Below are positions 33,347 to 53,381 of a stretch of 64,000 nt of DNA, in pieces. Where the stretch lies: sequence record OQ411014.1; one strand, given 5' to 3'. The stretch is from Escherichia phage EJP2. The translations under genes and the position numbers were made by a program. The notes beneath the pieces are model-generated. The model was not told where the DNA came from. It saw nothing but the letters and a program-made list of their open reading frames with translations, and made no database searches. The number at the start of each line of letters is the position of its first letter. Within the stretch, counting starts at the first letter, position 1.

Positions 33347-33382
33347 AAGAAAAATGCCAGTACATATTTTAGTACTGGCATT
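33347..33382. terminator. bidirectional terminator at strand switch
   Basis: A-run, gccagtac-N8-gtactggc, T-run. Confidence 0.65.
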
Positions 33383-33385
33383 TTG

Positions 33386-34516
33386 TTAAAATGGTAAATC
33401 TATTTGTTTGGTAATCGTCATACCTAAAGGTATTGAACACATTGACATATTTTTCCCATTTAGATTGGAAGGCGGCTGTCCGTTCATCCATATATTGGTA
33501 TCGTCATAGAATGTACTCCACCACGTAGAACCACCTTCTATGTGAATATTTTGATTAAAATCAGCGAATTGGCATTCTTGAAAAACTTCAAAAAACGGAA
33601 TAGATGATAAACTACTACTAGTAAATGGTGTATATCCTGTTGCCATTAACTTATTCGTATCTGAATTTACTAAAAAGATAACATTACCTGCATTGTATGG
33701 TACATATTTGGGATATAAATTACTCATATCACCAATAGGGAAGTTAATATTAAATATTTTACTATGCGTACCCGTTCCTGAAAGTGTAGTACCAGTTACG
33801 TATATTTTATTATCAGTTGTACCCATAATAAACCCAATACCAAACCCAGAACAAAATGTAATGTCGTATGAAACATTATCAAATAGTTGAACAAACGTAG
33901 TTACATCACCTGCTGGACTTTGTATTTGTAAACTATTGTTTGCACCTGCTCCCCAAACAGTTCCGTTACTTTTCACTTTGAATAAAGTATCTCCTATATA
34001 GTGACCATATATGCTATCAACTTCAGTATCAAGTTCTGTCCATTGTGACACAAAGTTTTTATGCCCTAAACCTAAACACCCATTACGATTAAGCCCTCTA
34101 CCGTACAATGTACCATCATTCATCAATACAAATACTGTATATCCACATAACATTTTTTTAATTTGTGTAACGTCGATACCATTAAAATACCCACTCCAAT
34201 CTGCATAACCTTGTTGCATTGTCGAAGAATTTGTAAATGCTTGTGTTGGCCCTGAACCATATATTTTACCACCTTTAATAATGACTGAAAACGATCCCAA
34301 CCACACATCTTGAACATCCTGAGCAATTGTTTTCAATTCACCATATGCAGTTAAGGGAGTACTTTGCCCTGAACTATATGTTGAATCTTCTCCGTGTGCA
34401 TATAATGTTCCATCTTGTGTTAGAATCATTTCTAAGTAAACAGCACTTACACTTTTCTTTATTTTATTAACTTCTATTTTATTTCCGTACTTCAACATCC
34501 TTGCAAAAGGTAACAT
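33386..34516 (-). CDS. RCC1-like beta-propeller paralog, N-terminal MLPFARMLKYGN
   Basis: 376 aa; YGRGLNRNGCLGLGHK-type repeats; 9 bp downstream of preceding paralog (likely co-transcribed). Confidence 0.8.
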   Translation of the reverse strand: MLPFARMLKYGNKIEVNKIKKSVSAVYLEMILTQDGTLYAHGEDSTYSSGQSTPLTAYGELKTIAQDVQDVWLGSFSVIIKGGKIYGSGPTQAFTNSSTMQQGYADWSGYFNGIDVTQIKKMLCGYTVFVLMNDGTLYGRGLNRNGCLGLGHKNFVSQWTELDTEVDSIYGHYIGDTLFKVKSNGTVWGAGANNSLQIQSPAGDVTTFVQLFDNVSYDITFCSGFGIGFIMGTTDNKIYVTGTTLSGTGTHSKIFNINFPIGDMSNLYPKYVPYNAGNVIFLVNSDTNKLMATGYTPFTSSSLSSIPFFEVFQECQFADFNQNIHIEGGSTWWSTFYDDTNIWMNGQPPSNLNGKNMSMCSIPLGMTITKQIDLPF

Positions 34517-34525
34517 GATAATCTC

Positions 34526-35704
34526 CTATCGATCAAATTTAAAATCTGTTATGTGTGTCCAAACATGTGGTAATGGTGTACTCAATGGTGTAAATCCAGC
34601 AGGGTCTGACAAAGTACTACCACATGCGTACATAAATTGATTACCAGTACAATCCATTATAGCATAAGAACGTGTAGCTGTACCACATTTGAATCCAACT
34701 GCACTGCTTGGTGTTGGTAATACTTCAAATGTTAGTGCATTTGATGAACCACCACCATCCTTTGTACCTGCGATGTATAGTACTCCATTATTATCAATGA
34801 TTAAGTTGGTCCAATATGCTTGTTCTCTCCCAGCAAGGAAATATGATAAATCACCTGGTACAAATGGTAATGTTCCTTTATACATGGTAGTATTAACATT
34901 CACTGGTGCTCCAGATACACCCCAAGCACTCATGAAGTTTCTTCCACTTGCGTAGAATGTAGTTCCTTTACCGTAAAGTATTAACGTCGCTTGACTTGTA
35001 CGCATTGCATTGTATTCAAACTCAGGATCATCAGTTGCGTTCTTAAAAATCTGTGTCCATGATGTGATATTTCCAGCAGTTGTTACGCCCATTTGATAAT
35101 AATAATTATCACCAGTAGCATAGAATTCTTTTGGTCCAGTTTGCACAACTGCATTACTATTAGTGAGCCAAAAATTCAAAGTTCCAGTTCTTACTATAGT
35201 TGGTGTAAAATTACCGACTGTGTTTCCTTTACCGAAATAACCATTCGCGTTATCCCCATGACCCCACACATCACCATTTGTTGTACGTATGAATAATGTA
35301 CCAGTATTGAAAGCAACTTTTTCTATAGTACTGATATCAATACCAGCCGAAGTGTACTTCGATGTGAAATCTTGAAAAGTACCCCAATAATTAGATGAAC
35401 CATTAAACATTGCTTGTCTACCAGTGTACTTCACTTTATTATCATTAGTTATAAGTAACGTCCCCCACACTGACGCGAACATCAACTTAACATTTTCCAT
35501 AACGAAATATGGTTTACCATATGCCGCAGCGGTAGAGTTCCTCCCTAAAAGTTGACCATTATTACTACAACCCCATACTTCGCCATTATCCAATAGCATT
35601 AACATTGTAGGCTTACCCGATGACACATCCAAGAAGAAATCCACGGGTGTTGCACCTTTCGGTATCACATTTCCATATTCTAACATCCTTACAAAAGGTA
35701 ACAT
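34526..35704 (-). CDS. beta-propeller-like paralog, N-terminal MLPFVRMLEYGN
   Basis: track ORF extends to TTG at 35710; ATG at 35704 follows GGAGA; Gly/Thr/Asn-rich repeat body. Confidence 0.8.
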   Translation of the reverse strand: MLPFVRMLEYGNVIPKGATPVDFFLDVSSGKPTMLMLLDNGEVWGCSNNGQLLGRNSTAAAYGKPYFVMENVKLMFASVWGTLLITNDNKVKYTGRQAMFNGSSNYWGTFQDFTSKYTSAGIDISTIEKVAFNTGTLFIRTTNGDVWGHGDNANGYFGKGNTVGNFTPTIVRTGTLNFWLTNSNAVVQTGPKEFYATGDNYYYQMGVTTAGNITSWTQIFKNATDDPEFEYNAMRTSQATLILYGKGTTFYASGRNFMSAWGVSGAPVNVNTTMYKGTLPFVPGDLSYFLAGREQAYWTNLIIDNNGVLYIAGTKDGGGSSNALTFEVLPTPSSAVGFKCGTATRSYAIMDCTGNQFMYACGSTLSDPAGFTPLSTPLPHVWTHITDFKFDR

Positions 35705-35740
35705 AATCAAATCTCCGTAATTAAATCATACAGTATTTAC

Positions 35741-35771
35741 AAAAAAAATGCCAGTACATATTTCAGTACTA
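35741..35771 (-). terminator. rho-independent terminator within paralog array (example)
   Basis: minus strand: agtactgaaatatgtactggc followed by T8. Confidence 0.6.
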
Positions 35772-35775
35772 TATA

Positions 35776-36942
35776 TTATTGGGGAAAGCGTGGATCGTCA
35801 AGAATAAATTCAGTACTGCTAGTTCCACCATCTGTGATATATGTTCCAGTACTATAGATGTAGTTTCCATCAGTTAGATACGTTCTGAAATTCGTACCAA
35901 TAACCTTAACATTAGGCATATCAGTTACTTCAGATGGTAAAATACATTTTGTATAGAATAGTTTATTTCCACTTGAACCTACACCTAAACAAACATAGTT
36001 GCTGGTATTATAACCACTACCATATACACCATCGGTTGTAACAACAAATGATTTATAATATTCGTATCCCAAATTGACACTTAAACGTTCACCTGCGGGT
36101 TGTTGTCCAGCCGAAATAGTACTATAAGCCTTATAAGTACCAGCCGAATCCTGACCATTACCAAGTGCACCAAATCGAGCAGCACCACCATTATATACGT
36201 TTTTAACTAATGAAGAATTTTGGTTTATACCAATAGCAACAAATTCGTTATTACTATACGCTATATTTGGACTTCCAACAGAAGTTGAATTTAACGTATA
36301 AATGGTTACTCTAGCACTAACATCATTATTATTATACCCAACAATTGTTCCAGTGTAATATAATTTACCGTCTTCTGTATTAAATCCATGCATGGTGCTA
36401 TTTGCGAATATTTTATGTGGGATAATACCATCTGGTATGGTGGCTTTAACAAAAGAACCAGTAATATTCGCTGTAGTATTATTTCCTAATTCACCATAGC
36501 TGCCGTACCCAGTTGACCATATAGTATCATTGGATAATAAAACACTTAGAGAGAATTTTGATGTTACGATATCTTTAATATCTGCCTCTAACAACGCAAA
36601 CAATGAAGAACAATCTGTCCATTGATTAACTGAACCACCAGGAACGCCAATATATGAGTTATTACCACTGAACCAGAACTCCCCATTGAACTTTTGAACT
36701 AATATAGTTTCCGCAGTAACCCATACCTTTTGTACGGAATCCAACGTCGGTGTCCATACAGTAACTTTAGTACCACTGGCATTACCCATACCAAACGCAC
36801 CCGATTGGTCACGCCCACGAACAAATAACTCACCAGATGTCATTAGAACAACCGTGAAATACATAGAGCATTTAATATCTTTTATTGGTGCTGGTGTTGG
36901 GGCTTTATTCCCATAATTTATCATCCTCACAAAAGGTAACAT
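35776..36942 (-). CDS. RCC1-like beta-propeller paralog, N-terminal MLPFVRMINYGN
   Basis: 388 aa; YGSGYNTSNYVCLGVG-type repeats. Confidence 0.8.
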   Translation of the reverse strand: MLPFVRMINYGNKAPTPAPIKDIKCSMYFTVVLMTSGELFVRGRDQSGAFGMGNASGTKVTVWTPTLDSVQKVWVTAETILVQKFNGEFWFSGNNSYIGVPGGSVNQWTDCSSLFALLEADIKDIVTSKFSLSVLLSNDTIWSTGYGSYGELGNNTTANITGSFVKATIPDGIIPHKIFANSTMHGFNTEDGKLYYTGTIVGYNNNDVSARVTIYTLNSTSVGSPNIAYSNNEFVAIGINQNSSLVKNVYNGGAARFGALGNGQDSAGTYKAYSTISAGQQPAGERLSVNLGYEYYKSFVVTTDGVYGSGYNTSNYVCLGVGSSGNKLFYTKCILPSEVTDMPNVKVIGTNFRTYLTDGNYIYSTGTYITDGGTSSTEFILDDPRFPQ

Positions 36943-37019
36943 AATTAATTCTCCAAAATTAAAATAATTATAAGGTATTTAATAAAAAAATACCAGCACC
37001 TTTCAGTACTGGTATTATA

Positions 37020-38402
37020 TTACATACTAGTTAATTGTATTTCTGTTAATGTCGCATAAGTTACGCCTTTGTAAATCCCACGCCAATAAATTTTCCCATC
37101 AGTTCCCATAACTACTAATCCATAGGACAAATGAGCACCAGCATCGTTATAGAGTGTTCCACCAACGTACATAGCATCATATACATCAATGCCAATATCT
37201 TCTGGTGTGAAATTCGCCACCGCCCCAGTAGACCATGTTGGACTTGCAAAATAATCACTATATACACCATGTGCTACTGTTATAACACTTGATCCTCGTT
37301 CATACAACACAGTACCACAAAAACTCATGTGGATACGCGTCGTCTGCGTCGTCGGTATATCAACCAATCCAGCACCTGGGTAAGACCCTGTAGTAATCTT
37401 CTTGTAATCACCACCAGTTGTGTTCAAGCTATTGACAGATGTACTACTCATACCAACGTTGTAGTTCTGGTAGTAATAGAAATTACCACTTATATATACT
37501 GAATACCCACCACCAGTACCATTACGTAATAATTTACCACCGGAAGTGAATAATATACCCTCATTACATGAATCAAAATGATATGTATCAGTTGTTGGAG
37601 CAACAATCTCAGTCCATGCTGTTAGGTTCTGATACGCCCCAGGTGTGTTCGTTAAGCATCTATTACTGTTTGTTCCTTTACCAACCAACGAGCCATCTTC
37701 TAATTGTGCATAAATTGCTTGATAACCATCAGTGTAATAAGTTGAGTTGTGAGCGAAACCAAGAATACCACTTATCTTTTTGACTTTTTGTGTTAATTTG
37801 GTATCTTTAACAAAACCAACAGTCCATTGACCATATGATACAATCTCGTTTATCATACCTAACCCATATGGGCCATTGTACCATATCTCACCCGCATCGT
37901 TAAGTACTACAACTAATCCTTCGTACTTACTTGTAAATGTCCCACTATTCCATGTTACTGGTCCGTTATTATATGCACTTACAACAATCGCATCAACTAT
38001 AGTCCCAACTTTGGTCAAAAATGCACTTACATCAACCCATTGGTAATCAGTCGTGAAAGGTGCACTAGTAGTACTCGCGTTAGTGAACAAACCAGTACTG
38101 TACTGTCCACAGAAGAAATATTTTCCGTTATTATCCAGTACTAAACATCCAATGTTTAATAACCAGAAATCCTTTACATTAGTACGGATAGCTTCTAAAC
38201 CAGAATCAACTGGAGTTTGTACACCAAAGGCAACCTTCTTCGTGTTACCCATTCCATAAAGAGTACCATCATTTCCTAAAATAGCACCCGCCCAGTTCCC
38301 ACCGCCATTTGAGTTTCGTCCTCTACCTACAGTTTGCATCTTTGTACCTTTAGGCACTTCAACTGTATTTCCATAATTTAACATCCTCACAAAAGGTAAC
38401 AT
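37020..38402 (-). CDS. beta-propeller-like paralog, N-terminal MLPFVRMLNYGN
   Basis: track ORF extends to TTG at 38417; ATG at 38402 (460 aa); Gly/Thr/Tyr-rich repeats. Confidence 0.8.
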   Translation of the reverse strand: MLPFVRMLNYGNTVEVPKGTKMQTVGRGRNSNGGGNWAGAILGNDGTLYGMGNTKKVAFGVQTPVDSGLEAIRTNVKDFWLLNIGCLVLDNNGKYFFCGQYSTGLFTNASTTSAPFTTDYQWVDVSAFLTKVGTIVDAIVVSAYNNGPVTWNSGTFTSKYEGLVVVLNDAGEIWYNGPYGLGMINEIVSYGQWTVGFVKDTKLTQKVKKISGILGFAHNSTYYTDGYQAIYAQLEDGSLVGKGTNSNRCLTNTPGAYQNLTAWTEIVAPTTDTYHFDSCNEGILFTSGGKLLRNGTGGGYSVYISGNFYYYQNYNVGMSSTSVNSLNTTGGDYKKITTGSYPGAGLVDIPTTQTTRIHMSFCGTVLYERGSSVITVAHGVYSDYFASPTWSTGAVANFTPEDIGIDVYDAMYVGGTLYNDAGAHLSYGLVVMGTDGKIYWRGIYKGVTYATLTEIQLTSM

Positions 38403-38443
38403 AACTAAATTCTCCAAAATTAAAATAATTATAATGTATTTAC
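38403..38443 (-). promoter_or_regulatory. conserved upstream leader/promoter module of paralog array (example)
   Basis: minus strand gtaaatacattataattattttaattttggagaatttagtt-ATG; near-identical upstream of at least 10 paralogs. Confidence 0.5.
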
Positions 38444-38474
38444 AAAAAAATACCAGTACGTATTTCAGTACTGG
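38444..38474 (-). terminator. rho-independent terminator within array
   Basis: minus strand: ccagtac-tgaaatac-gtactgg followed by T7. Confidence 0.65.
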
Positions 38475-38482
38475 CTTTTTAA

Positions 38483-39652
38483 TTAAGAAGGTAATAGAAA
38501 ATTAGCAAATCCACCCATCCCCAATGTGGGTACTAATCCAGCTACAGTTGGTGCTCTATTTGATGGTGAGCTAACAGCAATTCGACCATCTTTATATACC
38601 AATGAATTAGAACTGCCTGTGCATAAGTATCCACCTGAATATGGTACTGTACTTTGTTTACATTTGGTGAAAATTCCAATGGAAGACGATGCATTTATTA
38701 AATTTACACCATCATATCCACAACTATATATCCACCCATCTTCCCCTATGTATAAAGAAGAACTTGCATTTGCCGAACTAACGAACTTTCTGAATATTCG
38801 CTGATCCATAGGAGCAACTGACAATGTACCGGAATAGAATTTATTATTAATACCACTAGTAACACCGTCACCAAATACACCATAAGAACCTGAACCAGTT
38901 GCATAGTATCGTTTATCTCCCAAGAAAATCATACAGTTGTTATTGCATATTTTATATTGATATATTAAAGTAGTATCAATTCCTGGGAAAGATTCAGTAA
39001 ATGATAGAACATTAGCAATTGTACTTGCGTTGCATTGATGACTTGCATTTTGTCCTGATGATAAAATTGTTCCATCTTGTAGTAATATTCGAGATGTACC
39101 AGTACCACTAAAAACTCTTAATGCTGGTTTTGTATTATATATTTGTTTAAATGAAAAGAAACCAACAGACATTATTCCCTGACCACTCCATCCAGTATTG
39201 TCAGTTCCAATAGCCCATACTGAATCGTCTTCAGCGATAACCATAACACCATAGCGGTCAATGCTAATATCTTTAATTTTGGACATATCAATTGCATTGA
39301 ACCTTGAACTAATATCCTTCCATGTTGTTGTGCTTGCAGTAGGACTTACAGTTATATCATTCCCTGCTATATAAACACTCCCACTTATTGTAACATAAAT
39401 CGTTTGGGAATACCCAGTACTGCATAATAATACATTTTCTGAACTTGGAACCTTAATCCATTCGTTGTAAACTCCAGTTTGGGGCGTAATACCTAACTGA
39501 TAAAAATCATTTGACCCAGTAAGATATAGTTTTCCATCCTTAACAAAACTGAAATTAGAACTGTAATCACTGGATGTAAGTCTTGGTTCAATTGGTACTG
39601 GTGGTACTGGTGCATTATTCCCATATTCTAACATCCTCACAAAAGGTAACAT
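38483..39652 (-). CDS. RCC1-like beta-propeller paralog, N-terminal MLPFVRMLEYGN
   Basis: track ORF to 39667 (TTG); ATG at 39652; resembles 43486-44658. Confidence 0.8.
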   Translation of the reverse strand: MLPFVRMLEYGNNAPVPPVPIEPRLTSSDYSSNFSFVKDGKLYLTGSNDFYQLGITPQTGVYNEWIKVPSSENVLLCSTGYSQTIYVTISGSVYIAGNDITVSPTASTTTWKDISSRFNAIDMSKIKDISIDRYGVMVIAEDDSVWAIGTDNTGWSGQGIMSVGFFSFKQIYNTKPALRVFSGTGTSRILLQDGTILSSGQNASHQCNASTIANVLSFTESFPGIDTTLIYQYKICNNNCMIFLGDKRYYATGSGSYGVFGDGVTSGINNKFYSGTLSVAPMDQRIFRKFVSSANASSSLYIGEDGWIYSCGYDGVNLINASSSIGIFTKCKQSTVPYSGGYLCTGSSNSLVYKDGRIAVSSPSNRAPTVAGLVPTLGMGGFANFLLPS

Positions 39653-39739
39653 AACTAAATTCTCCAAAATTAAAATAATTATAATGTATTTACAAAAAAA
39701 TACCAGTACGTATTTCAGTACTGGTATTGTGGTATTGTA

Positions 39740-40846
39740 TCATTTCGGCATTGTAATTGCAGACCATGAATTTGAAGTAATTGGACCTGGTACGAACACT
39801 GTTGAACCACATGCATAAATTTGTCTATCCCCATCATACACAACACTAAAGCTAGTACAAGTAAACAATGACGAATTTAATGGATTGTAAGTATCTAATG
39901 TTAGTGTATTCTCCCACTGACTTGAACCTAGACCACCTGACCTACCAAATGCACCAGTACTGTATATCTTACCTTCAGTTGTTGCATATATATTAACATA
40001 TGAAGTTGAACTGGATTTAGATATTTTATGTATCTTATTATCAATTGCACTAGGGTTAAATGTAAATGGATATATTTGTACGTTAGTTCTTGAACCATTA
40101 CCAAGTTGACCATCATACTGCCAGCCAGCAACGTATGTACTACTACCTGAATATGCTATAGTACTAGTACTGTTACCGCCCAGTATTTTAACACTAGTTA
40201 AACGACTTACTAAAGTAATGTACTGCCCTTGACTCACACCCAGTGAACCATAACTACTAGTCCCACATCCAATAAGGTCACCGTTGGATGTTAAGATTAA
40301 TGTGTTGTTTTGCGTACCATATATATCAGCAACTTCATTTGTACCAGTATTCAGTACTAACACAAAAGCACTCTGTGAACTTGGATATCCACCACCGAGT
40401 GAATAGTTACCGTTCATGCCTCTTCCATAAACCTTTGTACCACTAGCATCTACGTAGTGCATCGTATCTGAACCAATTGATATCATTTTAATATTAGATA
40501 TGTGTGGGAATGAAGAAGTAACATCTAAACCACCCAAGGGGATTGCAGTATTACCCGTACCTAACTGAGAAGTAACTCCGTGTATTCTGAACTCTTCTCC
40601 TTTGAGATACAGAAGACTGTACCCACCAGCCCATGCATCAGAAACACCCTCTGCAACTAATATCCAAGTATTTTTTGCTGCTGTACCAAAGACATTCAAC
40701 TGCAAATATGAATTATCTCCACATCCATATAATGTCCCATCACTATATAGTACGTACAAATTATTGGTTCCACAAAATACTTTCTTGATCGTTATACCTT
40801 CTGGGGCTATATTTCCATAGGTCATTATTCTTGCAAAAGGTAACAT
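39740..40846 (-). CDS. RCC1-like beta-propeller paralog, N-terminal MLPFARIMTYGN
   Basis: 368 aa; LYGCGDNSYLQLNVFG and related repeats. Confidence 0.8.
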   Translation of the reverse strand: MLPFARIMTYGNIAPEGITIKKVFCGTNNLYVLYSDGTLYGCGDNSYLQLNVFGTAAKNTWILVAEGVSDAWAGGYSLLYLKGEEFRIHGVTSQLGTGNTAIPLGGLDVTSSFPHISNIKMISIGSDTMHYVDASGTKVYGRGMNGNYSLGGGYPSSQSAFVLVLNTGTNEVADIYGTQNNTLILTSNGDLIGCGTSSYGSLGVSQGQYITLVSRLTSVKILGGNSTSTIAYSGSSTYVAGWQYDGQLGNGSRTNVQIYPFTFNPSAIDNKIHKISKSSSTSYVNIYATTEGKIYSTGAFGRSGGLGSSQWENTLTLDTYNPLNSSLFTCTSFSVVYDGDRQIYACGSTVFVPGPITSNSWSAITMPK

Positions 40847-40937
40847 AATTAAATCTCCATATAATAATTATAATGTATTTACAAAAAAAGCCAGTACGTA
40901 TTTCAGTACTGGTATTGTGGTATTGTGGTATTGTGAT

Positions 40938-42128
40938 TTAAGGCTTCGGCACTGGCGGTGTTACCAGTTGATATGTGTTCTGAATTGTATTGTTCGAGAA
41001 TGAACGTCCAGTGTAGTATACGTCACCAGCTTTCGTCAAATAAGCAACGCCGAAATCAGCACCAACATATGTTTCCATGCTGCTAATATTAGGTGGATTC
41101 ACTGGCGGCGTAAATCTAGCCTTGTTACTATTAGTACCATTACCAAACCGACCATAAGTACCATTACCTGTAGTATATAATGTACCATTAGTACTAATAA
41201 CGCAACCAATGTCTGAACCATCACCATTGGTGTTAAGTGTTACTGGAGAAGTTATTACAGTACTGCTATCAGTAAGGAATAGTAAGTTATTATTAATACT
41301 TACAGCATTACTTAAACTACCTGTTCCTAAGTTTCCATTAATACTGTTACCACTTACAATTAAGTACCAAGCGTCAGTTGTTGTATTGTTTATCAATATG
41401 AATGAACCATCTGTGTTCATTGCAACATCATGTGGAATTAGGTTAGTAGCTAAATTGTACTTAGTCCATGAATATATGTTATTCGTTGTTGCCGTAATAC
41501 CCAAGATCCCAGAACTATTCTGACCAGTTCTCCAGAGTGAATTATCATTCTTGATAATCCACGTGGTATTAATGCGATGTGTTAATTTTTTTACATCAGT
41601 ATTCAATTTAGTAAAAGTACTAACCATAGTGTTACTACCAAGTCCTAATGTCCCTCCTAGGTTTCTACCCATACCATATAGATCACCATTTTCTAAGTGC
41701 ACTAAAATATGACTCCACGAAACCTGAATATCAATTATACTGTCTATTTGTGTAGGTGTAAAAACACTCGTAAACAAAGTCGTTATATCAGTCCACGTGG
41801 TACTAAACCCAGTACCAGCAACAATATCATTTGCTCCGGTGTAATAAAATTTATTATCAATAGTCTGAATCAATGCGAACTCAACAAGTGAACATGCAAA
41901 TCTTTTAACATCATGATGTACTAAAACCCAATTCGGATAATTTGTACCACCTGAATCACCTTGTCCGAAGCAGTAGTTCCTTGAAGTTCCACCACCAATC
42001 CCATATAGTGTGTTGTCCTTGTACAATATAAACAAACAACCACTATTACCCGATGGCATATAAATTGTTTCTATTGGTGAAGTAGGTAACTTATTCCCGT
42101 ACTCCAAAATTCTTGCAAAAGGTAACAT
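40938..42128 (-). CDS. beta-propeller-like paralog, N-terminal MLPFARILEYGN
   Basis: track ORF to 42188; conserved ATG at 42128 (396 aa). Confidence 0.75.
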   Translation of the reverse strand: MLPFARILEYGNKLPTSPIETIYMPSGNSGCLFILYKDNTLYGIGGGTSRNYCFGQGDSGGTNYPNWVLVHHDVKRFACSLVEFALIQTIDNKFYYTGANDIVAGTGFSTTWTDITTLFTSVFTPTQIDSIIDIQVSWSHILVHLENGDLYGMGRNLGGTLGLGSNTMVSTFTKLNTDVKKLTHRINTTWIIKNDNSLWRTGQNSSGILGITATTNNIYSWTKYNLATNLIPHDVAMNTDGSFILINNTTTDAWYLIVSGNSINGNLGTGSLSNAVSINNNLLFLTDSSTVITSPVTLNTNGDGSDIGCVISTNGTLYTTGNGTYGRFGNGTNSNKARFTPPVNPPNISSMETYVGADFGVAYLTKAGDVYYTGRSFSNNTIQNTYQLVTPPVPKP

Positions 42129-42215
42129 AACTAAATTCTCCAAAATTAAAATAATTATATTGTATTTACAAAAAAAATACCAGCACATATTTCAGTACTG
42201 GTATTGTTTCTTATT

Positions 42216-43406
42216 TTATTGCCATAACTGTGTTGGCATTAGGGTTAGTGTAGTAACAACAGACGCACCATTAGGTAAGTTACCACCAGAACCATTAAAA
42301 CCACCACACGCATATAATTTATAATCTTTAGTAACAATTAATGTCCTGGACCAGTCTTTAGATGCCATAAGAACATTGTCATATCCACCAGGTATAGCAG
42401 TTAATTTAAACAACGCCCACGAATTAACTAGAGTTGTATTTCCTGTTCCTTGTTGACCATATGAATTGACACCACCACTCCTAACATATGATGGGTATTG
42501 AGCCATAGGTGTACCAATTGATGCGTTACCCATAGAACTAGGACATAAGAAAGCATCACTAATATTCACTGTAACTTGTGAATTTTTAACTGGAGTGAGT
42601 TGGTTTGTAGATGAAGTAGTACCATTCCCAGCTTGTCCAGTATTGTTGTAACCACTCCAATACACACTACCAGCAGTGAACCACCAAGTAACATCATAGG
42701 TAGCACTTATATAATCGACGTTCGTTCGTATTAATTTATTAGTATAAACGAATGAGCTAGTCCCACCCCCACTTTCACCAAAGTTATCCTTACCACAAAA
42801 CCATGCTTCTTTATTTGTTTTGAGATAGTGTGTACCCTGTAATGAACATGCGAGTTGAGAAACTTCACCCATATTAGTCATAACTGTTAGTACTGGAATA
42901 GCATTTTTATTCCCTGAACCACATTCAGCATTTGTATTGTTACCACAAGCAATGACTCTTCCATCGTGTAGTAATATTCTAGTACTTTCACCTATATGTA
43001 CACTCTTGATTAAATTAGCGTGCACATTAATTTTGTCAAAGGAAGCAGTAACATCAGTCCATGTTAAGAAATATCCATTAACAGGAGTTGCGGCTCCATA
43101 ATCAGGAAATGCACCTATCGACCCAGTGTAGTATATTCTATTATCCAGATCAATCATCAATGATCCATGAACACCTACCCAAAACGCCGCACAGTGCATT
43201 GCGAGTACAGTAAAAGTAGAAACTGTTGATCTATTCCCTAGACCTAATTGGCCCAAGTTATTACTACCATATCCGTATAATGTATTCGTGGGCTTATGTA
43301 GATACATAGCATTGGTGTATTGTTGCTGTAAAACATCAGTAAACTCTACTGGATCAGGAGGGGCAATCGTATTCCCATAAGTCATTATTCTTGCAAAAGG
43401 TAACAT
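42216..43406 (-). CDS. RCC1-like beta-propeller paralog, N-terminal MLPFARIMTYGN
   Basis: track ORF to 43421; ATG at 43406; clear repeats LYGYGSNNLGQLGLGN, WYSGYNNTGQAGNG, VNSYGQQGTGN. Confidence 0.85.
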   Translation of the reverse strand: MLPFARIMTYGNTIAPPDPVEFTDVLQQQYTNAMYLHKPTNTLYGYGSNNLGQLGLGNRSTVSTFTVLAMHCAAFWVGVHGSLMIDLDNRIYYTGSIGAFPDYGAATPVNGYFLTWTDVTASFDKINVHANLIKSVHIGESTRILLHDGRVIACGNNTNAECGSGNKNAIPVLTVMTNMGEVSQLACSLQGTHYLKTNKEAWFCGKDNFGESGGGTSSFVYTNKLIRTNVDYISATYDVTWWFTAGSVYWSGYNNTGQAGNGTTSSTNQLTPVKNSQVTVNISDAFLCPSSMGNASIGTPMAQYPSYVRSGGVNSYGQQGTGNTTLVNSWALFKLTAIPGGYDNVLMASKDWSRTLIVTKDYKLYACGGFNGSGGNLPNGASVVTTLTLMPTQLWQ

Positions 43407-43447
43407 AACTAAATTCTCCAAAATTAAAATAATTATAATGTATTTAC

Positions 43448-43481
43448 AAAAAAATACCAGTACGTATTTCAGTACTGGTAT
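43448..43481 (-). terminator. rho-independent terminator within array
   Basis: minus strand: taccagtac-N8-gtactggta followed by T7. Confidence 0.65.
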
Positions 43482-43485
43482 AATG

Positions 43486-44658
43486 TTATGGTAAAATAAT
43501 AGCTTGTAACGAACTCATACCCAATTCTGGAACACTCGCCTGTGGTGCTGGTGCATTCACTTTTGGTGATGAAACCGCATAAGTCATTCCTGTACCCAAA
43601 TCTGGATCAAAAACTACAGAACAATAATCCCCATTGTATATAAGTCCATTAGTATATCCTTGTGCACTTTGAATGCATTTCGTGAACGTACCAATGTCAG
43701 TAGTGGCATTTATTAAGTTCCTCCCACGGTAGCCACAGGTGTATATGAAATTATCAACACCTATGTACATACTCGCATTCCCAGAAGAACTACATAGATA
43801 AGACATATAAGCACGCATGTTTTTAGGAGCAACTGACAATGTACCAGCATAGAATTTATTATTCGAACCCGAAATATCACCATCACCCAAAGCACCAAAA
43901 CTCCCCCAACCAGTACCATAATATCTCTTATCACTCAAGAATATAATACAGTTGTTATTACACATCTTGATTTGATATATCAATGAAGGATCAACCCCAG
44001 GGAATGATTCAGTGTATGTTAGAACAGCCAGATCAGTACTAGCATTACATTGATGATATGTATTAGTACCAGCGGACAATATTGTACCATTAGCTAATAG
44101 AATCCTCGAAGTGCCAGTACCAGCAGTACAAGCAACAGCATTACCTGTATATATTTGTCTGAAAGTAAAGAAACCAACAGTTTTACTCCCCTGTCCACTC
44201 CAACCAGTATTATCAACACCACATGCCCATACTGAACCATCTTGCATGATCATCATTACACCATAGCGTTCTATCGAAATATAGACAATCTTCGTAGTAT
44301 CAACTGCACTAAATCTAGAAGTTATATCAGTCCAAACCTTTACACTCACCGCCGTCGCACCGAAAGTAGGATCTTCCCCTGCTATCATTATCCTACCATT
44401 GTTAGTCAGATACATTGTCTGACCATAACCAGTACTACAAAACTTAACACTATCAGTCTCTGGAACTTTTAACCACTCGTTGTAACGTGTTACGTTAGTG
44501 TTATTACCTAACTGATAATAGTTATTCATCCCAGATACATATAACACACCATCCTTTATTAAACTATAAGTCGCACTATAGTCACTACAGGTATAACGTG
44601 TACCCACAGGCCGCTCAACGACGTTCCCATATTCTAACATCCTTACAAAAGGTAACAT
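43486..44658 (-). CDS. RCC1-like beta-propeller paralog, N-terminal MLPFVRMLEYGN
   Basis: track ORF to 44664; ATG at 44658; LYVSGMNNYYQLGNNT repeat. Confidence 0.8.
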   Translation of the reverse strand: MLPFVRMLEYGNVVERPVGTRYTCSDYSATYSLIKDGVLYVSGMNNYYQLGNNTNVTRYNEWLKVPETDSVKFCSTGYGQTMYLTNNGRIMIAGEDPTFGATAVSVKVWTDITSRFSAVDTTKIVYISIERYGVMMIMQDGSVWACGVDNTGWSGQGSKTVGFFTFRQIYTGNAVACTAGTGTSRILLANGTILSAGTNTYHQCNASTDLAVLTYTESFPGVDPSLIYQIKMCNNNCIIFLSDKRYYGTGWGSFGALGDGDISGSNNKFYAGTLSVAPKNMRAYMSYLCSSSGNASMYIGVDNFIYTCGYRGRNLINATTDIGTFTKCIQSAQGYTNGLIYNGDYCSVVFDPDLGTGMTYAVSSPKVNAPAPQASVPELGMSSLQAIILP

Positions 44659-44732
44659 AATCAAATCTCCGTAATTAAATCATACAGTATTTACAAAAAA
44701 ATACCAGTACATATTCCAGTACTGGCCTATTA

Positions 44733-45854
44733 TTAAAAGGGCAACGGTAACTCAGTAAAAGTACTTACGTTCGGTAAACCATACATTAAATTAGCATCAC
44801 CACAGTAATACCACTTCGTAGAATCATGTACCACCGATAAACGCTGTGCACATAACACTTCCTGTATGTCATTAAACACCATCGGGACTAACTCATATGT
44901 ATCCGCATATGAAGATTCACCACCACTCGCATGAAAAGTATTCATCCCAGCATAAAATAACTGATTAGTGTTCTTACCCACAGCAAATGTCATCAATATC
45001 CCATCATTCTCCCATAAAGAAGAAAACTTATCAACACTACCAGAAAGCTCTGTGTAAGTACTCGTAATGGCACTCGCAGCCGCCGCATTACCCATCTGTT
45101 TATTCAAGTTCTGTCCAGCAATAAAATATCTCGTGCGTGCACTAGAATCAGTATATAATAACCCAGTGTTCGTAGTCATCATTCCAATGTCCTTAATCGT
45201 CATACCAGTCTGTGAATAACTTAGATACGAAGTTAAACTACCATTATTACCCAACGAACCGTTATCACTCATGCCACAACGATGTAATATACCACTTGTA
45301 TCAACGTAGATAGTACTAACTAAACTCGTATACAACTCTTGTACATTATTCGCAATAAACACAGCAGTCGCCTTATTAGTAACCCCACCAAATGATAGGT
45401 TATTATCAAATCCCTTAGCGTATAATTGATTATTAGTAGTAACTAACCCAATCGCGTAATAAGATATTTTCATATCCCTTACAGTACTCAAATCTACTAC
45501 CCCAAATTGATGCGTAACATCTGTCCATGTGAAAATCTGTGCACTACCAACACCACCCGTTTCAAACCATTTGTCACCACAGTACAATATGCGATTATCC
45601 TTAGTAAAGATAACTGTTACCAATCCACTACCACACGCAAACTTTACATCACTTCTAACCTTCGTCCAATCAAGTACATAGGTAGTGGTGTTATTACCTA
45701 TACCTAACTTACCATAACGGTTATAACCACGCACCCACAAATCACCACTCTCAGTAATTAATAGTAATGCGTCTCCTGTACTTATTATTCGAAATCCCGA
45801 ACTAGGATCGGGTGCTATATTCCCATAAGTCATCATTCTTGCAAAAGGCAACAT
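44733..45854 (-). CDS. beta-propeller-like paralog, N-terminal MLPFARMMTYGN
   Basis: 373 aa; WVRGYNRYGKLGIGNN repeat. Confidence 0.8.
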   Translation of the reverse strand: MLPFARMMTYGNIAPDPSSGFRIISTGDALLLITESGDLWVRGYNRYGKLGIGNNTTTYVLDWTKVRSDVKFACGSGLVTVIFTKDNRILYCGDKWFETGGVGSAQIFTWTDVTHQFGVVDLSTVRDMKISYYAIGLVTTNNQLYAKGFDNNLSFGGVTNKATAVFIANNVQELYTSLVSTIYVDTSGILHRCGMSDNGSLGNNGSLTSYLSYSQTGMTIKDIGMMTTNTGLLYTDSSARTRYFIAGQNLNKQMGNAAAASAITSTYTELSGSVDKFSSLWENDGILMTFAVGKNTNQLFYAGMNTFHASGGESSYADTYELVPMVFNDIQEVLCAQRLSVVHDSTKWYYCGDANLMYGLPNVSTFTELPLPF

Positions 45855-45935
45855 AATAAAATCTCCGTAATTAAATCATACAGTATTTACAAAATACCAG
45901 CACATATTTCAGTACTGGTATAGTGGTATATTAAA

Positions 45936-47084
45936 TCACTGCACAAATGACATATCAACTTCTGTGTAACTAGGCACGCTCTGTGTAGAAAGACCACCCA
46001 TTGCTACCATCGCAATTCCACAATAATATAACTTCCCTTTGTCATCGAGTAACAATGTCCCAGATGGTGTTGTTACTAAATTACACGAAGTATTAAAAGA
46101 AGTATATGAAGGAGTATAGTAGTACTGATTAATGGTATTACCTACACCTAATTTTCCATACCCATTGCCGCCAGATGCGTAAAGTACTTCATCTGCTTTG
46201 ACAATATGTGATGCCATGTTACTAACACACGTATATACAGCACTAACTCCTGTACTCAATAATGTAGGAGTCTTGTATTGGAGATCAGTACTGGAAGATG
46301 TTCCACCTGTACCAAATTCATTACCGTATTGTGCACCGTATTGTTTACCACATCCGTACAAATTACCATCACTCTTAATAAAAAACGTACTCTGGTAACT
46401 TACATTAAAATCAATAACATCTGATGCAATCTGCTTTACTCCAGTGATAGAAACCTGATCCCCTGTACCTAACTGATAGTAATAGTTAAATCCACATCCC
46501 CATAAGGTATTGTCTGTACGCAAATAAATGTTACCAACAGCCTTTTTAACAGACGTTATAGTACTGACCTTCTTGAATGTATTAAATGAACTAATGTTTG
46601 TACCATCTCCAAAGGATGTTATATTAGATATGTTATTAGCACCACAACAATATAATGTACCGTCATTTGTTACCAAATTCACCTTCATATTATTAAAACT
46701 ACTCATGTACGCAATATCCGAAACAGTAATACCACTGGATGTTATCCACGTAGTACAATCCGTCCATAACGTCTTTCTATCAGTTACACCAGTGAATGCA
46801 TTTGTGTTTCCAGTCATAAACACTTTCCCTGTGCCCTCTTCTTCATACAACTGACAATCACTGCTGTTATCTTCCAATAGAACTCTTTTAACGTTCTCTG
46901 CACATAGAATAAATTTACTCGCAGCTACTCCAGTTCCCGTACCATAAATGCTTCCAGATGATGCATACAACTTTTTAGTGAAAGTATCATGTAAGTATAC
47001 AGACATACTAGAATATATTTTAAAACGATCATCGTTAGTAGGAGCAACATTACTGTACTCCAATATCCTCGCAAAAGGTAACAT
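45936..47084 (-). CDS. beta-propeller-like paralog, N-terminal MLPFARILEYSN
   Basis: track ORF to 47099; ATG at 47084; Gly/Thr/Asn-rich repeats. Confidence 0.75.
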   Translation of the reverse strand: MLPFARILEYSNVAPTNDDRFKIYSSMSVYLHDTFTKKLYASSGSIYGTGTGVAASKFILCAENVKRVLLEDNSSDCQLYEEEGTGKVFMTGNTNAFTGVTDRKTLWTDCTTWITSSGITVSDIAYMSSFNNMKVNLVTNDGTLYCCGANNISNITSFGDGTNISSFNTFKKVSTITSVKKAVGNIYLRTDNTLWGCGFNYYYQLGTGDQVSITGVKQIASDVIDFNVSYQSTFFIKSDGNLYGCGKQYGAQYGNEFGTGGTSSSTDLQYKTPTLLSTGVSAVYTCVSNMASHIVKADEVLYASGGNGYGKLGVGNTINQYYYTPSYTSFNTSCNLVTTPSGTLLLDDKGKLYYCGIAMVAMGGLSTQSVPSYTEVDMSFVQ

Positions 47085-47123
47085 AACTAAATTCTCCATA
47101 CAATAATTATAATGTATTTAACC

Positions 47124-47153
47124 AAAAAAAGCCAGCACCTTTCAGTACTGGTA
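47124..47153 (-). terminator. rho-independent terminator within array
   Basis: minus strand: accagtactgaaaggtgctggc followed by T7. Confidence 0.6.
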
Positions 47154-47162
47154 TCTATAATC

Positions 47163-48059
47163 CTATGTAAAAACATACTGCGTGTTAACACGTGTACCAT
47201 TGTCAAAACCAAGCACATAAAATATCTCAGGACTATTATTAGAACCAAATAACGCTCCAGTACTACTACTCAAAGTACTATTAACCGCTAACGCAATCCA
47301 TTCGTTTTGTTCTTGGTCGTATCTCAATAAATTTAATGCACCAAATGATACTGCATATATTTGTTTATCATATGTATTGTAAATTATTTTACTAGGGTTA
47401 GAACCACCAACACCAGCAATGTTAGACCACACAGCACTCTGTATATGATATTTTTGTGCAGTACTCACACCTTGGCCTGTAATATATATGTAAGTACCAT
47501 CTGTACACATATCACCACCACCATTGTTATTTGTACCATCACTCGTACCTAATGATGCCCAGGTATTAGTACTAGGAGTATAACTGTATAACGAATTATT
47601 AGTAGGAGATCCCCACAAATATATCTTATCACCAGCAGTAATCATCTTACTATACGCCAGTTGATTAGGCTTCCCAATACTGTTAGTGTTCAGAATCCAG
47701 GTATTTGTACTTATATTATATACATAAAAATTATTAGCACCATTACCAGTACCACCAAACAAATATATTTTCCCCTCATAAAAACATAACGCACTACCAA
47801 ATGTAGATACAGGTGCATTGGCTAATTGTAACCACGTTCTAGTACTTAAATTAAAACTCCATAACTGATTATCCCCCATCACCGCATTCTGTATACCACC
47901 AAATATATAAGCAGTATTACTTTTCGCATCATACGTATAACCAAAGTTATTTTTAGCAGGAGGTACAGGTGATGTCGTAAATGCAGAACGTATTCCCCTA
48001 TTGGTAGCAAACACCTCTGCAACATTCCCGTACTCCAACATCCTTACAAAAGGTAACAT
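47163..48059 (-). CDS. Kelch-like beta-propeller paralog, N-terminal MLPFVRMLEYGN (short member)
   Basis: 298 aa; Kelch-type spacing: AYIFGG...WSFNLSTRTW...KIYLFGG...YVYNISTNTW. Confidence 0.75.
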   Translation of the reverse strand: MLPFVRMLEYGNVAEVFATNRGIRSAFTTSPVPPAKNNFGYTYDAKSNTAYIFGGIQNAVMGDNQLWSFNLSTRTWLQLANAPVSTFGSALCFYEGKIYLFGGTGNGANNFYVYNISTNTWILNTNSIGKPNQLAYSKMITAGDKIYLWGSPTNNSLYSYTPSTNTWASLGTSDGTNNNGGGDMCTDGTYIYITGQGVSTAQKYHIQSAVWSNIAGVGGSNPSKIIYNTYDKQIYAVSFGALNLLRYDQEQNEWIALAVNSTLSSSTGALFGSNNSPEIFYVLGFDNGTRVNTQYVFT

Positions 48060-48136
48060 AACTAATTCTCCAAAATTAAAATAATTATAATGTATTTACA
48101 AAAATACCAGCACCTTTCAGTACTGGTATAGTAGTA

Positions 48137-49246
48137 TTATATCGGTAAATCTATCTTAGTGAAAATACCAACATCTTCACTCGCTCCAGGTATTGCATAA
48201 TATGTCCCAGTACTGTACACTTCACCATCTTTTGTTAATATAGATGTTAAACCATCACTATAAAGAACATCCCTGATATCACTAACTCCAACTGGTAACT
48301 GCAAATTCGTTGCACTATAAACCGCTCCAGTCTGAGAATTGTTTAATCCTAAACCACGGTTTGAACCTACACCCTTCTGATATGTACTAGTAATTATAAT
48401 TTGTGTAGCAGTATTTAATGCAGGTGAATTCGTCATAAACAACGGAGAACTATTAGGCAAAGAACTTGCAGGAACTGCACGAAATGTAGTTGCATCTGAA
48501 CTAAGAAAGTTTGGCGTTTGACCACATACGAAATATGATGTACCATTATAGTAATTAAATGCATTACCACCTATAGCTGCATCTATTACTCCAGTACTAC
48601 GTAATCCCCACGTGTTAATTTGTGTTCGGTTCCCCGTACCATGCTGACCCCTGTCATTCCACCCAGAACTATATAACTTATTATCTAATGTAATATACAT
48701 ACTGTCATTTGCATTCGTCATTACTTTACGCACATTAGTAGCACATTGAGTTAATGTGTAAATTGATGATGAACCAATACCTAAAGCACCACGATATCCA
48801 TTAGCCCCTGCACCATAGAGTACTGAACTAGTGCTAAGTACAAATATTAAACCATACGAACATACTATATCAGCAATTTCATTTACCGATAGTACACTAG
48901 TAAACCACGCAGTCCTATCAACTAATACAGTACTGTAAGAAGTCCCAGTAGAAGACGAAAACCAATAAGTCTCACCAGTAGTCCATATAGTATTGTCACT
49001 CTTAATAACAACAACTGTACGATCACCAGCAAAAAAATTAGTAACTCCTGTACTCACTAATGTCCATGAAGATACAGTGTTCGTATTGTTATTACCCGAT
49101 TCCCCACCCTGATTCCTACCTATGTAATATAATTCATTCGTGTCAGTCAACACATACTGCCCCTGCGTCGATGCCCCAACCTTAATTATATTTTTAGGAC
49201 CGGGTGCAACATTCCCGTACTCCAACATCCTTACAAAAGGTAACAT
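48137..49246 (-). CDS. RCC1-like beta-propeller paralog, N-terminal MLPFVRMLEYGN
   Basis: 369 aa; LYSSGWNDRGQHGTGN, LYGAGANGYRGALGIG; 10 bp downstream of 49257-50387. Confidence 0.8.
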   Translation of the reverse strand: MLPFVRMLEYGNVAPGPKNIIKVGASTQGQYVLTDTNELYYIGRNQGGESGNNNTNTVSSWTLVSTGVTNFFAGDRTVVVIKSDNTIWTTGETYWFSSSTGTSYSTVLVDRTAWFTSVLSVNEIADIVCSYGLIFVLSTSSVLYGAGANGYRGALGIGSSSIYTLTQCATNVRKVMTNANDSMYITLDNKLYSSGWNDRGQHGTGNRTQINTWGLRSTGVIDAAIGGNAFNYYNGTSYFVCGQTPNFLSSDATTFRAVPASSLPNSSPLFMTNSPALNTATQIIITSTYQKGVGSNRGLGLNNSQTGAVYSATNLQLPVGVSDIRDVLYSDGLTSILTKDGEVYSTGTYYAIPGASEDVGIFTKIDLPI

Positions 49247-49256
49247 ATTTCTCTCC

Positions 49257-50387
49257 TTAATTTAATAATGCCCCTGGCAAATCCACTTTGACGAATTGTG
49301 CATATGCTGTGGAATTTTGATCAAAGTTTGGTCCCAATCCATAAAATGAGCTAATGCCGTCTTCATTTGTGTATATGATATAAACGTTCTTTACATCATT
49401 TCCGCATATAAATCGAATGTCTTTCGTTTGTGTTCCCGCTGGAACATTACGAAGGCTCACAACGCCATTACTTGCATTGTTATCAGCCGACGCAATTGGT
49501 AATTGATTTTGACCATATTGACCACGCATATTTTTTGCATCTAAACCAAACACAGTATTTGATACCGCACCAACTTTCAAAAATGAACCAAAACTATCAT
49601 TGAATGACTTTGGAAATGTACCACTATAAACACTTCTCCCATCTGATAATACCGCTGAACTGAATTTCCCGCTATTCGATATGGCAAATTCATTGTAAGG
49701 AAGTGTACCCATTTTGGTATATACAGAATATGAATTAGTGGAAGTATTATCAATAATCTTATTACCATTATATCCAATACCATACTGGTATCCGTCTGCA
49801 TCTTGAACTATACACAAAGGACCACTTGGGGTTTGTGTCAACGAAACAACACGTTCAACTTGTATATCACCAAATGTATTTCTTCGCCATGTTCTATCTA
49901 TTATAGTACTAGTATTACCCAAAGATAATGCCACACTATATAATAGATTGTTTTCAGTAAAAATGGCAACATAATATGCGTGGTTAATAACTTGCTTCAT
50001 CCCAGCATCAATAACTTCCTGTGGAATATGATCAGTAACATCCAACCAATCAAGGTTAGATGATGCAATATCTGGAGTACTGAATTTGTCAAATCTAGTT
50101 GAGCCACAAACTAGCACTCTATCATCATTTGTCAAAGCCACTGTGCTAGTCTGCATATTAGAACTGAATGATTTAACATTACTAATGTTAGACTTGTACC
50201 AACCCTTATCAGCAGCACCCACCGTGAATCCGGTTCCCATTGATCCACTTGTACTTGTACCATAAGCCCACATCTCACCACTATATGTTAGTGCCATACA
50301 GTGGCTTCCATTTGCTTGGAAATCCTTTATACCAGTGGGAGCAGCCACTGTATTCCCATAATTAAACATTCTAACAAAAGGTAACAT
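49257..50387 (-). CDS. beta-propeller-like paralog, N-terminal MLPFVRMFNYGN (first gene of array)
   Basis: track ORF to 50396; conserved ATG at 50387; upstream conserved gtaaatactatataat motif. Confidence 0.75.
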   Translation of the reverse strand: MLPFVRMFNYGNTVAAPTGIKDFQANGSHCMALTYSGEMWAYGTSTSGSMGTGFTVGAADKGWYKSNISNVKSFSSNMQTSTVALTNDDRVLVCGSTRFDKFSTPDIASSNLDWLDVTDHIPQEVIDAGMKQVINHAYYVAIFTENNLLYSVALSLGNTSTIIDRTWRRNTFGDIQVERVVSLTQTPSGPLCIVQDADGYQYGIGYNGNKIIDNTSTNSYSVYTKMGTLPYNEFAISNSGKFSSAVLSDGRSVYSGTFPKSFNDSFGSFLKVGAVSNTVFGLDAKNMRGQYGQNQLPIASADNNASNGVVSLRNVPAGTQTKDIRFICGNDVKNVYIIYTNEDGISSFYGLGPNFDQNSTAYAQFVKVDLPGALLN

Positions 50388-50501
50388 AATAATCATCCCT
50401 ATACAATAAAATTATATAGTATTTACCAAAACAACTATTGACAACACAATAGCAGTACTGTATAGTATAGCAATAAAATTCCCACATAAAGGCCCAACAA
50501 C

Positions 50502-53360: not shown

Positions 53361-53381
53361 ACTTTAAAAGAGATTAAAACG

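Follow-up and report, generated by a model that had tools for sequence, protein, structure and literature searches.

The DNA analyzed here (the window) is a 64,000-nucleotide (nt) stretch of Escherichia phage EJP2 (sequence record OQ411014.1), a divergent member of the Rak2-like (Asteriusvirus-type) jumbo coliphages. It contains 15 genes whose products, 298 to 460 amino acids (aa) long, all begin with the same 12-residue peptide, M-L-P-F-[VA]-R-[MI]-[LMIF]-x-Y-[GS]-N (the tag). Fourteen of them form an uninterrupted minus-strand array at 33386-50387, and the 15th lies apart at 19676-20854 (g01 to g15 in Table 1). An earlier note on this DNA had reported 15 minus-strand open reading frames (ORFs) with a common N-terminal dodecapeptide, and a six-frame scan of the window for the motif LPF.R agreed with this: it gave exactly 15 sites, all of them minus-strand ORF starts at which the motif comes immediately behind an ATG. 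The consensus given in that note was correct overall, except that position 8, listed there as L, M or F, can also be I (g12 has RMINYGN). A GGAG-type ribosome-binding site lies 5' of the ATG in all 15 genes, and because of its position we take the MLPF codons to be the true starts, including those of genes whose mechanical ORFs extend further upstream (for example, the mechanical ORF of g08 is 40938-42188, and its ribosome-binding site indicates a true start at 42128).

What do the protein bodies that follow the tag look like? Pfam profiles of the RCC1 type (PF25390 (WD40_RLD), PF00415 (RCC1) or PF13540 (RCC1_2)) match 13 of the 15 proteins with E-values down to 7e-26, and several of the repeat matches are above the gathering cutoff. 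The 460 aa g11 protein has no Pfam match; its assignment to this group comes from phrog_4219, a phage RCC1 family (E 9e-13), and from BLASTP comparisons, in which it falls into one cluster with the other 13. The g03 protein matches Kelch profiles (PF24681 at 79.6 bits with a cutoff of 50, and Kelch_6 at 65 bits). An AlphaFold2 model of g09, the sole RCC1-like member modelled, was built from an alignment of 48 tagged paralogs and has a predicted local distance difference test score (pLDDT) of 89.8 and a predicted template modelling score (pTM) of 0.89. Its best Foldseek match is UVR8 (4dnw_A; E 8e-22, template modelling score (TM) 0.79), followed by RPGR, HERC2 and RCC1, and a PDB sequence search agrees (UVR8, HERC1, RCC1 and RPGR chains); the fold of g09 as modelled is a seven-bladed RCC1-like propeller. 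The g03 model (pLDDT 84.8) is matched by the six-bladed Kelch domains of NS1-BP, KLHL and LZTR1 at TM 0.75. The bodies are 14 seven-bladed RCC1-like propellers and one six-bladed Kelch propeller. The RCC1 and Kelch beta-propellers predicted in the earlier note were thus borne out by Pfam, PHROGs, AlphaFold2 and Foldseek, and its description of the genes as 15 paralogs stands for the 14 RCC1-family members; the body of g03 is not a paralog of the others and has only the tag in common with them. Pfam and profile searches found no beta-helix or fibre domains in the tagged bodies, and no effector-type enzymatic domains were found among them. All 15 proteins are acidic to neutral (isoelectric point (pI) 5.2-7.0, net charge -7 to 0), and lysine plus arginine make up 5-7% of their residues.

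The tag is conserved and the bodies are not: an all-versus-all comparison of the 15 copies gives average pairwise identities of 81% for the tag and 23% for the bodies, which upholds the earlier description of nearly complete divergence behind the tag, and the only closer pair of bodies is g06 and g10 (54% identity). Nucleotide identity among the 15 copies of the tag is 0.89, 0.93 and 0.65 at codon positions 1, 2 and 3, respectively, and it is 0.35 in the next 36 nt. Because third codon positions vary while first and second positions are conserved, we conclude that selection acts on the peptide. At least one proline is present among the ten residues after the tag in 13 of the 15 proteins. Residues 1-19 of the g09 model are devoid of secondary structure, with a pLDDT of 59 over the first ten; residues 1-20 of the g03 model are at pLDDT 52 and 43. 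In both models, then, the tag and its proline-containing linker are predicted to be unstructured and to lie outside the propeller, in accord with the earlier opinion that the tag is too short to be a domain and with its being a flexible, separate N-terminal element. A secretion or lipoprotein signal is unlikely, since the sequence contains neither a lipobox nor a hydrophobic core as long as that of a signal peptide. Import into a phage nucleus was also considered and dropped; the data gave no pointer to a nucleus, and the Asteriusvirus/Rak2-like clade has T4-type replication and head modules.

Thirteen of the 15 tag genes have their own upstream unit, which consists of a terminator-like hairpin (CCAGTACTG...CAGTACTGG, then a T run), the box GTAAATAC-NN-TATRAT and the ribosome-binding site. 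The two others, g02 and g14, lack such a promoter; they directly follow the stop codons of g01 and g13, respectively. The 64 kb contain 13 copies of the box (0.25 expected), all of them upstream of tag genes, and the hairpin scan gave 22 sites versus 7.3 expected. Unlike the plus-strand early promoters of the same window the box has no -35 element; the plus-strand genes have a different promoter, of the sigma-70 type TTGMCW-N16-18-TATAAT (13 sites, many of them within a repeated cassette described below). Because the array box is similar to the TATAAATA boxes that precede structural genes of the related phage phAPEC6 and to the single TATAAATA of the window, which likewise precedes a virion structural gene (below), and because phAPEC6 encodes a gp55-like late sigma factor, the tag genes are probably expressed late. 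The array may be regarded as a series of near-autonomous cassettes, each with terminator hairpin, special promoter, ribosome-binding site, tag and variable body, whose members would be gained, lost and exchanged between related phages, and the repeats of terminator, promoter and tag are plausible substrates for the recombination this would require. The cassettes are similar to the PeSL-type cassettes of T4-type phages, which are repeated intergenic units of stem-loop and promoter that lie beside variable genes and are plausible shuffling substrates. PeSLs differ in that they have early sigma-70 promoters, whereas the EJP2 array cassettes have a promoter without a -35 element and include, with the tag, the start of the coding region.

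The tag is not peculiar to EJP2. Its variants are MLPF[AG]RM[VI]KYGN in phAPEC6 and 121Q (13 copies in the former, 10 recovered in the latter), MIPF[AT]RIL.YGN in Salmonella phage Munch (17 copies), MLPFSRIIQYGN and MLPFARIFRYGD in Cronobacter GAP32 (at least 2 copies), MLPF[PS]R[LM]..Y[GA]N and variants in Pectobacterium CBB (10 copies), MLPFPIISN and MLPFARIVEYGN in Serratia BF (9 copies), MFPIPIIS.YGN in Xanthomonas XaC1 (3 copies), and MLPFSII.. and variants in a 355-kb metagenomic contig (6 copies). A degenerate-DNA scan of IMG/VR, with a tag pattern that demanded R at position 6 and YGN, found only 121Q, BF, GAP32, CBB and one 355-kb contig. Four body types occur behind the tag: RCC1, Kelch, Laminin_G_3/ConA-like lectin (Munch_534, CBB_548, CBB_551 and the GAP32_002 family) and Gly_rich_2 (Munch_544, BF gp377 and a 121Q ORF); the Gly-rich tag carrier had no match in a PDB sequence search. 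A Kelch body 54% identical to that of g03 is present in another 349-kb phage contig, where it starts with that lineage's tag variant, MFPISIISQYGN, so the variant follows the phage lineage and not the cargo; cellular Kelch homologues have no tag. Co-evolution of the tag with a partner in the particle would give such lineage-bound variants.

Only four of the 15 EJP2 members (g02, g04, g07 and g09) have phAPEC6 orthologues at 70% identity or above, and g06/g10, g13 and g14 are closer to Munch proteins (41-49% identity). The idea that the array is more variable than its flanks was rejected, as relatives cover 49% of the array, 11% of 8-33 kb and 46% of 50.4-64 kb; the whole 64-kb window is accessory DNA. 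Within it 8001-33000, a large block of lineage-specific small genes, is nearly unique to EJP2 (the 11% is the coverage by the best relative in megablast). Public annotation of the relatives is incomplete in places: three intact tagged ORFs are missing from that of phAPEC6 MK817115, the annotated start of phAPEC6 gp002 is 108 nt upstream of the MLPF codon (these four phAPEC6 loci are 2434-3540, 6063-7250, 7325-8056 and 3506-4810), and that of JP4_581 is likewise over-extended. Homologous RCC1-like and ConA-like bodies are also encoded by Cronobacter phage EspYZU15 (a 145-kb Seunavirus unrelated to the jumbo clade) at 7947-8669 and 11699-12862. Their N-termini differ from the tag yet resemble each other (MFEMLLGGKAP..., ...MQELLLIGNKG), and they may represent a second, lineage-specific tag.

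Are the tagged proteins parts of the virion? Published mass spectrometry (MS) of purified phAPEC6 virions detected gp003, 005, 006, 007, 009, 010, 549 and 551 (PMC7247149), and that of CBB virions detected CBB_247, 536, 537, 548, 549, 551, 552 and 553 with coverage of up to 51% (PMC5259590). We find that all eight of these phAPEC6 proteins and all eight of these CBB proteins carry the tag, and they make up 8/13 and 8/10 of the tagged proteins of the two phages, respectively. Tagged proteins are enriched among virion proteins with an odds ratio of 14 (p 1.4e-5) in phAPEC6 and of 25 (p 6.5e-6, with a conservative denominator) in CBB. The tagged GAP32_001, JP4_577 and JP4_581 proteins have been detected in virions as well (among PMC7247149, PMC5259590 and PMC12648861). 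The CBB authors regarded proteins present in CBB and not in GAP32 as candidates for the tail "hairs" (PMC5259590), and five of the six structural proteins that are present in CBB and absent in GAP32 carry the tag. Virion incorporation was one of several roles suggested for the tag in the earlier note, and this enrichment, which extends over all four tagged folds, supports it.

We think it probable that the tag serves as a docking peptide by which binding modules of various kinds become part of the virion, and that it has this role throughout the Rak2-like jumbo phages. By this mechanism the particle would have one common site that recognizes the flexible N-terminal peptide in trans; the peptide would perhaps insert a short strand into this partner and would itself cause incorporation, so that any cargo fold behind it would be built into the virion. 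The 15 EJP2 genes would then encode late-expressed, virion-associated binding modules in which a short, usually proline-containing linker follows the tag. Tentatively, we would place these modules on the outside of the capsid or tail, where they may form a mosaic coat of lectin-/adhesin-like domains; we favor the exterior because the cargo folds are lectin-/adhesin-like and the proteins are acidic and not DNA-binding. Unassigned appendages have been described at the hexamer centers, collar and tail rings of 121Q and phAPEC6 (PMC5646251, PMC7247149). A more specific proposal, which we consider doubtful, is that the 10-17 lectin-/propeller-type modules of each genome compete for one class of many exterior docking sites. 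These sites could be the hexamer-center or tail "hair" appendages of 121Q, phAPEC6 and CBB (the tagged CBB proteins absent from GAP32 hint at the latter), and a mosaic, possibly stochastic, adhesin coat on each virion would broaden or hedge host or surface binding.

The docking idea is not unprecedented. In other phages, N-terminal docking peptides of only 7-11 residues mount secondary receptor-binding proteins (PMC6872550); those of K1-5/SP6 and KP32-type phages sit on an adaptor or a T4gp10-like branching domain (PMC6872550, PMC13352976), their loss abolishes incorporation, and the interaction was validated by engineering in 2026 (PMC13352976). The EJP2 proteins share with these systems (K1E/K1-5/SP6, KP32/KP34, Menlow and phiK64-1/RaK2) a conserved, short, group-specific N-terminal peptide on otherwise unrelated proteins. 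They differ in their cargo: the known docking peptides carry trimeric tailspikes or depolymerases, one to few per peptide type, on a T4gp10-like domain or adaptor, whereas the MLPF peptide carries no trimeric spikes and instead carries propeller and lectin-type proteins of 22-50 kDa, 10-17 genes per genome on one peptide. The MLPF tag was sought on the RaK2 tail-fibre proteins, which have other peptides (LIQPKGSVSKETN, MSLSNLSSSN).

Several points weigh against the tag being a docking peptide. Its link to incorporation is correlative and is drawn from relatives rather than from EJP2. The bodies are monomer-type folds, unlike the trimeric tailspikes that known docking peptides carry. Five of the 13 tagged phAPEC6 proteins and two of the ten in CBB were not detected, and the RCC1 proteins that were detected had low coverage (1-5 peptides), which fits a low copy number and fits loose association as well. 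The MS tables, including the JP4 supplement, list proteins without peptide positions, so that retention of the tag in the virion cannot be read from them. The assignment of the array promoters as late rests on motif resemblance only, and the data fit exterior and interior locations alike.

The virion MS data fit an internal location equally well. The main rival explanation of the tag, which we regard as unlikely, is that it is a T4-like capsid-targeting sequence that directs the proteins into the prohead core or inner body, from which they might be ejected as tight-binding inhibitors of host defenses. The T4 internal proteins IPI, IPII, IPIII and Alt carry such a sequence of about ten residues at their extreme N-termini; they are otherwise unrelated, are encoded by variable (hyperplastic) loci, go into T4-type heads and are found in virions. 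The EJP2 family resembles this pattern in having a conserved N-terminus of about that length on unrelated virion proteins, and the phages have a T4-type head module (gp23-like capsid protein, prohead protease and portal). RCC1-like propellers can also bind proteins very tightly, and the InterPro family name couples RCC1 with beta-lactamase inhibitor protein II. The T4 sequences, however, are removed after a Glu at the prohead-protease site (L/I-x-E) with which they end, and no such site is conserved in the tag: Glu is present at tag position 9 in 8 of the 15 EJP2 copies and is absent from all phAPEC6 copies (MVKYGN) and from the Serratia BF (PFPIISN) and XaC1 variants. The T4 internal proteins are moreover small and basic, whereas the tagged cargo is 30-50 kDa and acidic, contains no effector-type enzymatic domain and, in its ConA-like lectin, Gly-rich and Kelch members, resembles parts of fibre and baseplate proteins. 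A destination for internal proteins would be available in 121Q and phAPEC6, whose inner body is of unassigned composition (PMC5646251, PMC7247149).

The remaining explanations are weak. That the tag serves only its own protein's biogenesis, as a closing strand of the propeller, a folding nucleus or a recognition peptide for a phage chaperone, and is no virion address, appears quite improbable to us. Beta-propellers are often closed by a borrowed N-terminal strand, phAPEC6 encodes a GroES-like protein, and low AlphaFold2 confidence is general at chain termini, so that a bound state could be missed; yet the same tag occurs on four unrelated folds, including the non-propeller ConA-like and Gly-rich ones, its variants track phage lineage rather than body type, cellular Kelch homologues do without it, and in both models it is set off from the fold by the linker. 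Conservation at the DNA or RNA level, with the first 36 nt being a repeated promoter/initiation cassette homogenized by gene conversion and the peptide functionless, would account for the high similarity of intergenic cassettes within a genome, for the nearly invariant first 13 nt of the tag genes (ATGTTACCTTTTG) and for the higher nucleotide identity of the tag within the phAPEC6 genome (0.93) than between genomes (0.82). It would not account for the variation of third codon positions (above), nor for the presence of the tag where the cassette is missing (g02, g14 and translationally coupled Munch genes) and in genera with unrelated upstream DNA, and we think it very improbable. We give just as little credence to the role implied by the database names of these proteins ("DNA condensation protein", "regulator of chromosome condensation") and proposed in the phAPEC6 paper (PMC7247149), that they are DNA or chromosome condensation factors that organize the packaged genome. 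The name comes from eukaryotic RCC1, a Ran exchange factor with chromatin-binding activity. To our knowledge Ran is absent from bacteria. The composition of the 15 EJP2 proteins (above) argues against DNA binding, and the same tag carries lectin-like and Kelch bodies. "DNA condensation protein" is thus a propagated name whose implied function is not supported.

How much of this system was known? The earlier note did not recognize the arrangement as a described phage system, and in this it was mistaken: the multi-copy RCC1-like genes of 121Q, PBECO4 and phAPEC6, which are the same gene family and array as in EJP2, had been described in 2017 (PMC5259590) and 2020 (PMC7247149), and so had their presence in virions. 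In those papers the shared N-terminal peptide and its non-RCC1 virion carriers go unremarked and a role in DNA condensation or the inner body is proposed from the name. We found no paper that prints or discusses the MLPF peptide; the CBB, phAPEC6, JP4 and EJP2 papers are silent on the shared N-terminus, and the tagged proteins are not mentioned in the phiKp24 cryo-electron microscopy paper, the Sharanji paper or the EJP2 paper. The array and its virion association are known, and the tag itself is apparently new. If the tag is a docking peptide, the upkeep of 17 kb of "chromosome condensation" genes in these phages would be explained, the name being a misleading one for what would be a turnover-prone repertoire of virion-borne binding modules, and one 12-residue assembly rule would cover some 10-17 "structural proteins" scattered over each genome, in at least five genera. 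The tagged proteins are testable candidates for the hair-like and hexamer-center appendages of 121Q, phAPEC6 and CBB, and the tag could be a minimal handle for foreign-protein display or host-range engineering in therapeutic jumbo phages. The tagged ORFs that are missing or wrongly started in public records can be corrected in any case.

Table 1. Tagged genes, array-type promoter boxes and terminator-like hairpins in the EJP2 window
Feature	Position	Strand	Basis
g01, tagged RCC1-like propeller gene, 376 aa, tag MLPFVRMFNYGN	49257..50387	-	Pfam RCC1_2 7e-7, WD40_RLD 5e-8
g02, tagged RCC1-like propeller gene, 369 aa	48137..49246	-	Pfam; 84% ortholog in phAPEC6
g03, tagged Kelch six-bladed propeller gene, 298 aa	47163..48059	-	Pfam, AlphaFold2; 100% identical to EJP02_508
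g04, tagged RCC1-like propeller gene, 382 aa, tag MLPFARILEYSN	45936..47084	-	Pfam
g05, tagged RCC1-like propeller gene, 373 aa	44733..45854	-	Pfam
g06, tagged RCC1-like propeller gene, 390 aa, 54% identity with g10	43486..44658	-	Pfam
g07, tagged RCC1-like propeller gene, 396 aa	42216..43406	-	Pfam
g08, tagged RCC1-like propeller gene, 396 aa	40938..42128	-	Pfam, ribosome-binding site
g09, tagged RCC1-like propeller gene, 368 aa, modelled member	39740..40846	-	Pfam, AlphaFold2
g10, tagged RCC1-like propeller gene, 389 aa	38483..39652	-	Pfam
g11, tagged divergent RCC1-family gene, 460 aa	37020..38402	-	phrog_4219 9e-13; no Pfam match
g12, tagged RCC1-like propeller gene, 388 aa, tag MLPFVRMINYGN	35776..36942	-	Pfam
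g13, tagged RCC1-like propeller gene, 392 aa	34526..35704	-	Pfam
g14, tagged RCC1-like propeller gene, 376 aa	33386..34516	-	Pfam
g15, separate tagged RCC1-like propeller gene, 392 aa, promoter type as in array	19676..20854	-	Pfam
Promoter box before g01 (GTAAATAC-NN-TATRAT)	50411..50426	-	motif scan
Promoter box before g03	48084..48099	-	motif scan
Promoter box before g04	47106..47121	-	motif scan
Promoter box before g05	45875..45890	-	motif scan
Promoter box before g06	44679..44694	-	motif scan
Promoter box before g07	43432..43447	-	motif scan
Promoter box before g08	42154..42169	-	motif scan
Promoter box before g09	40867..40882	-	motif scan
Promoter box before g10	39678..39693	-	motif scan
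Promoter box before g11	38428..38443	-	motif scan
Promoter box before g12	36967..36982	-	motif scan
Promoter box before g13	35725..35740	-	motif scan
Promoter box before g15	20875..20890	-	motif scan
Terminator-like hairpin after g02 (CCAGTACTG...CTGG, then T run)	48104..48129	-	hairpin scan
Terminator-like hairpin after g03	47132..47151	-	hairpin scan
Terminator-like hairpin after g05	44703..44726	-	hairpin scan
Terminator-like hairpin after g06	43454..43481	-	hairpin scan
Terminator-like hairpin after g07	42176..42205	-	hairpin scan
Terminator-like hairpin after g08	40891..40912	-	hairpin scan
Terminator-like hairpin after g09	39699..39728	-	hairpin scan
Terminator-like hairpin after g10	38452..38475	-	hairpin scan
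Terminator-like hairpin after g11	36989..37016	-	hairpin scan
Terminator-like hairpin after g14, array end	33351..33384	-	hairpin scan

Other regulatory elements and genes of the window were observed as follows: The palindromic core CAGTACTG (which contains AGTACT) occurs both in array terminator stems and, on the other strand, in the spacers of early promoters (for example, at 33351-33384, 38452-38475 and 54542-54634). On the plus strand of 51900-64000, small ORFs are preceded by an intergenic cassette of about 93 nt that is present at least 15 times; its parts are a sigma-70-type promoter (TTGCAC or TTGACA, N17, TATAAT), a hairpin rich in GC (GAGCGGGAA...TTCCCGC) and the ribosome-binding site AAGGAA, and it resembles the PeSL early-gene cassettes of T4-type phages. 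The only TATAAATA sequence (a T4-late-type box) of the 64-kb window is at 14883, 53 nt upstream of a 506-aa plus-strand ORF (14936-16456) that matches phrog_20398, a family of virion structural proteins (E 2e-155). Two further plus-strand genes encode an RNA polymerase sigma factor of the phage (4574-5566; phrog_351, E 8e-51) and an HNH/homing endonuclease (25910-27007; phrog_559). Finally, the array is bracketed by two plus-strand genes, 32672-33346 and 50502-51194, that are divergent paralogs of each other (24% identity, E 1e-12; 224 and 230 aa; phrog_29152) and are not homologous to the gene that flanks the phAPEC6 array.

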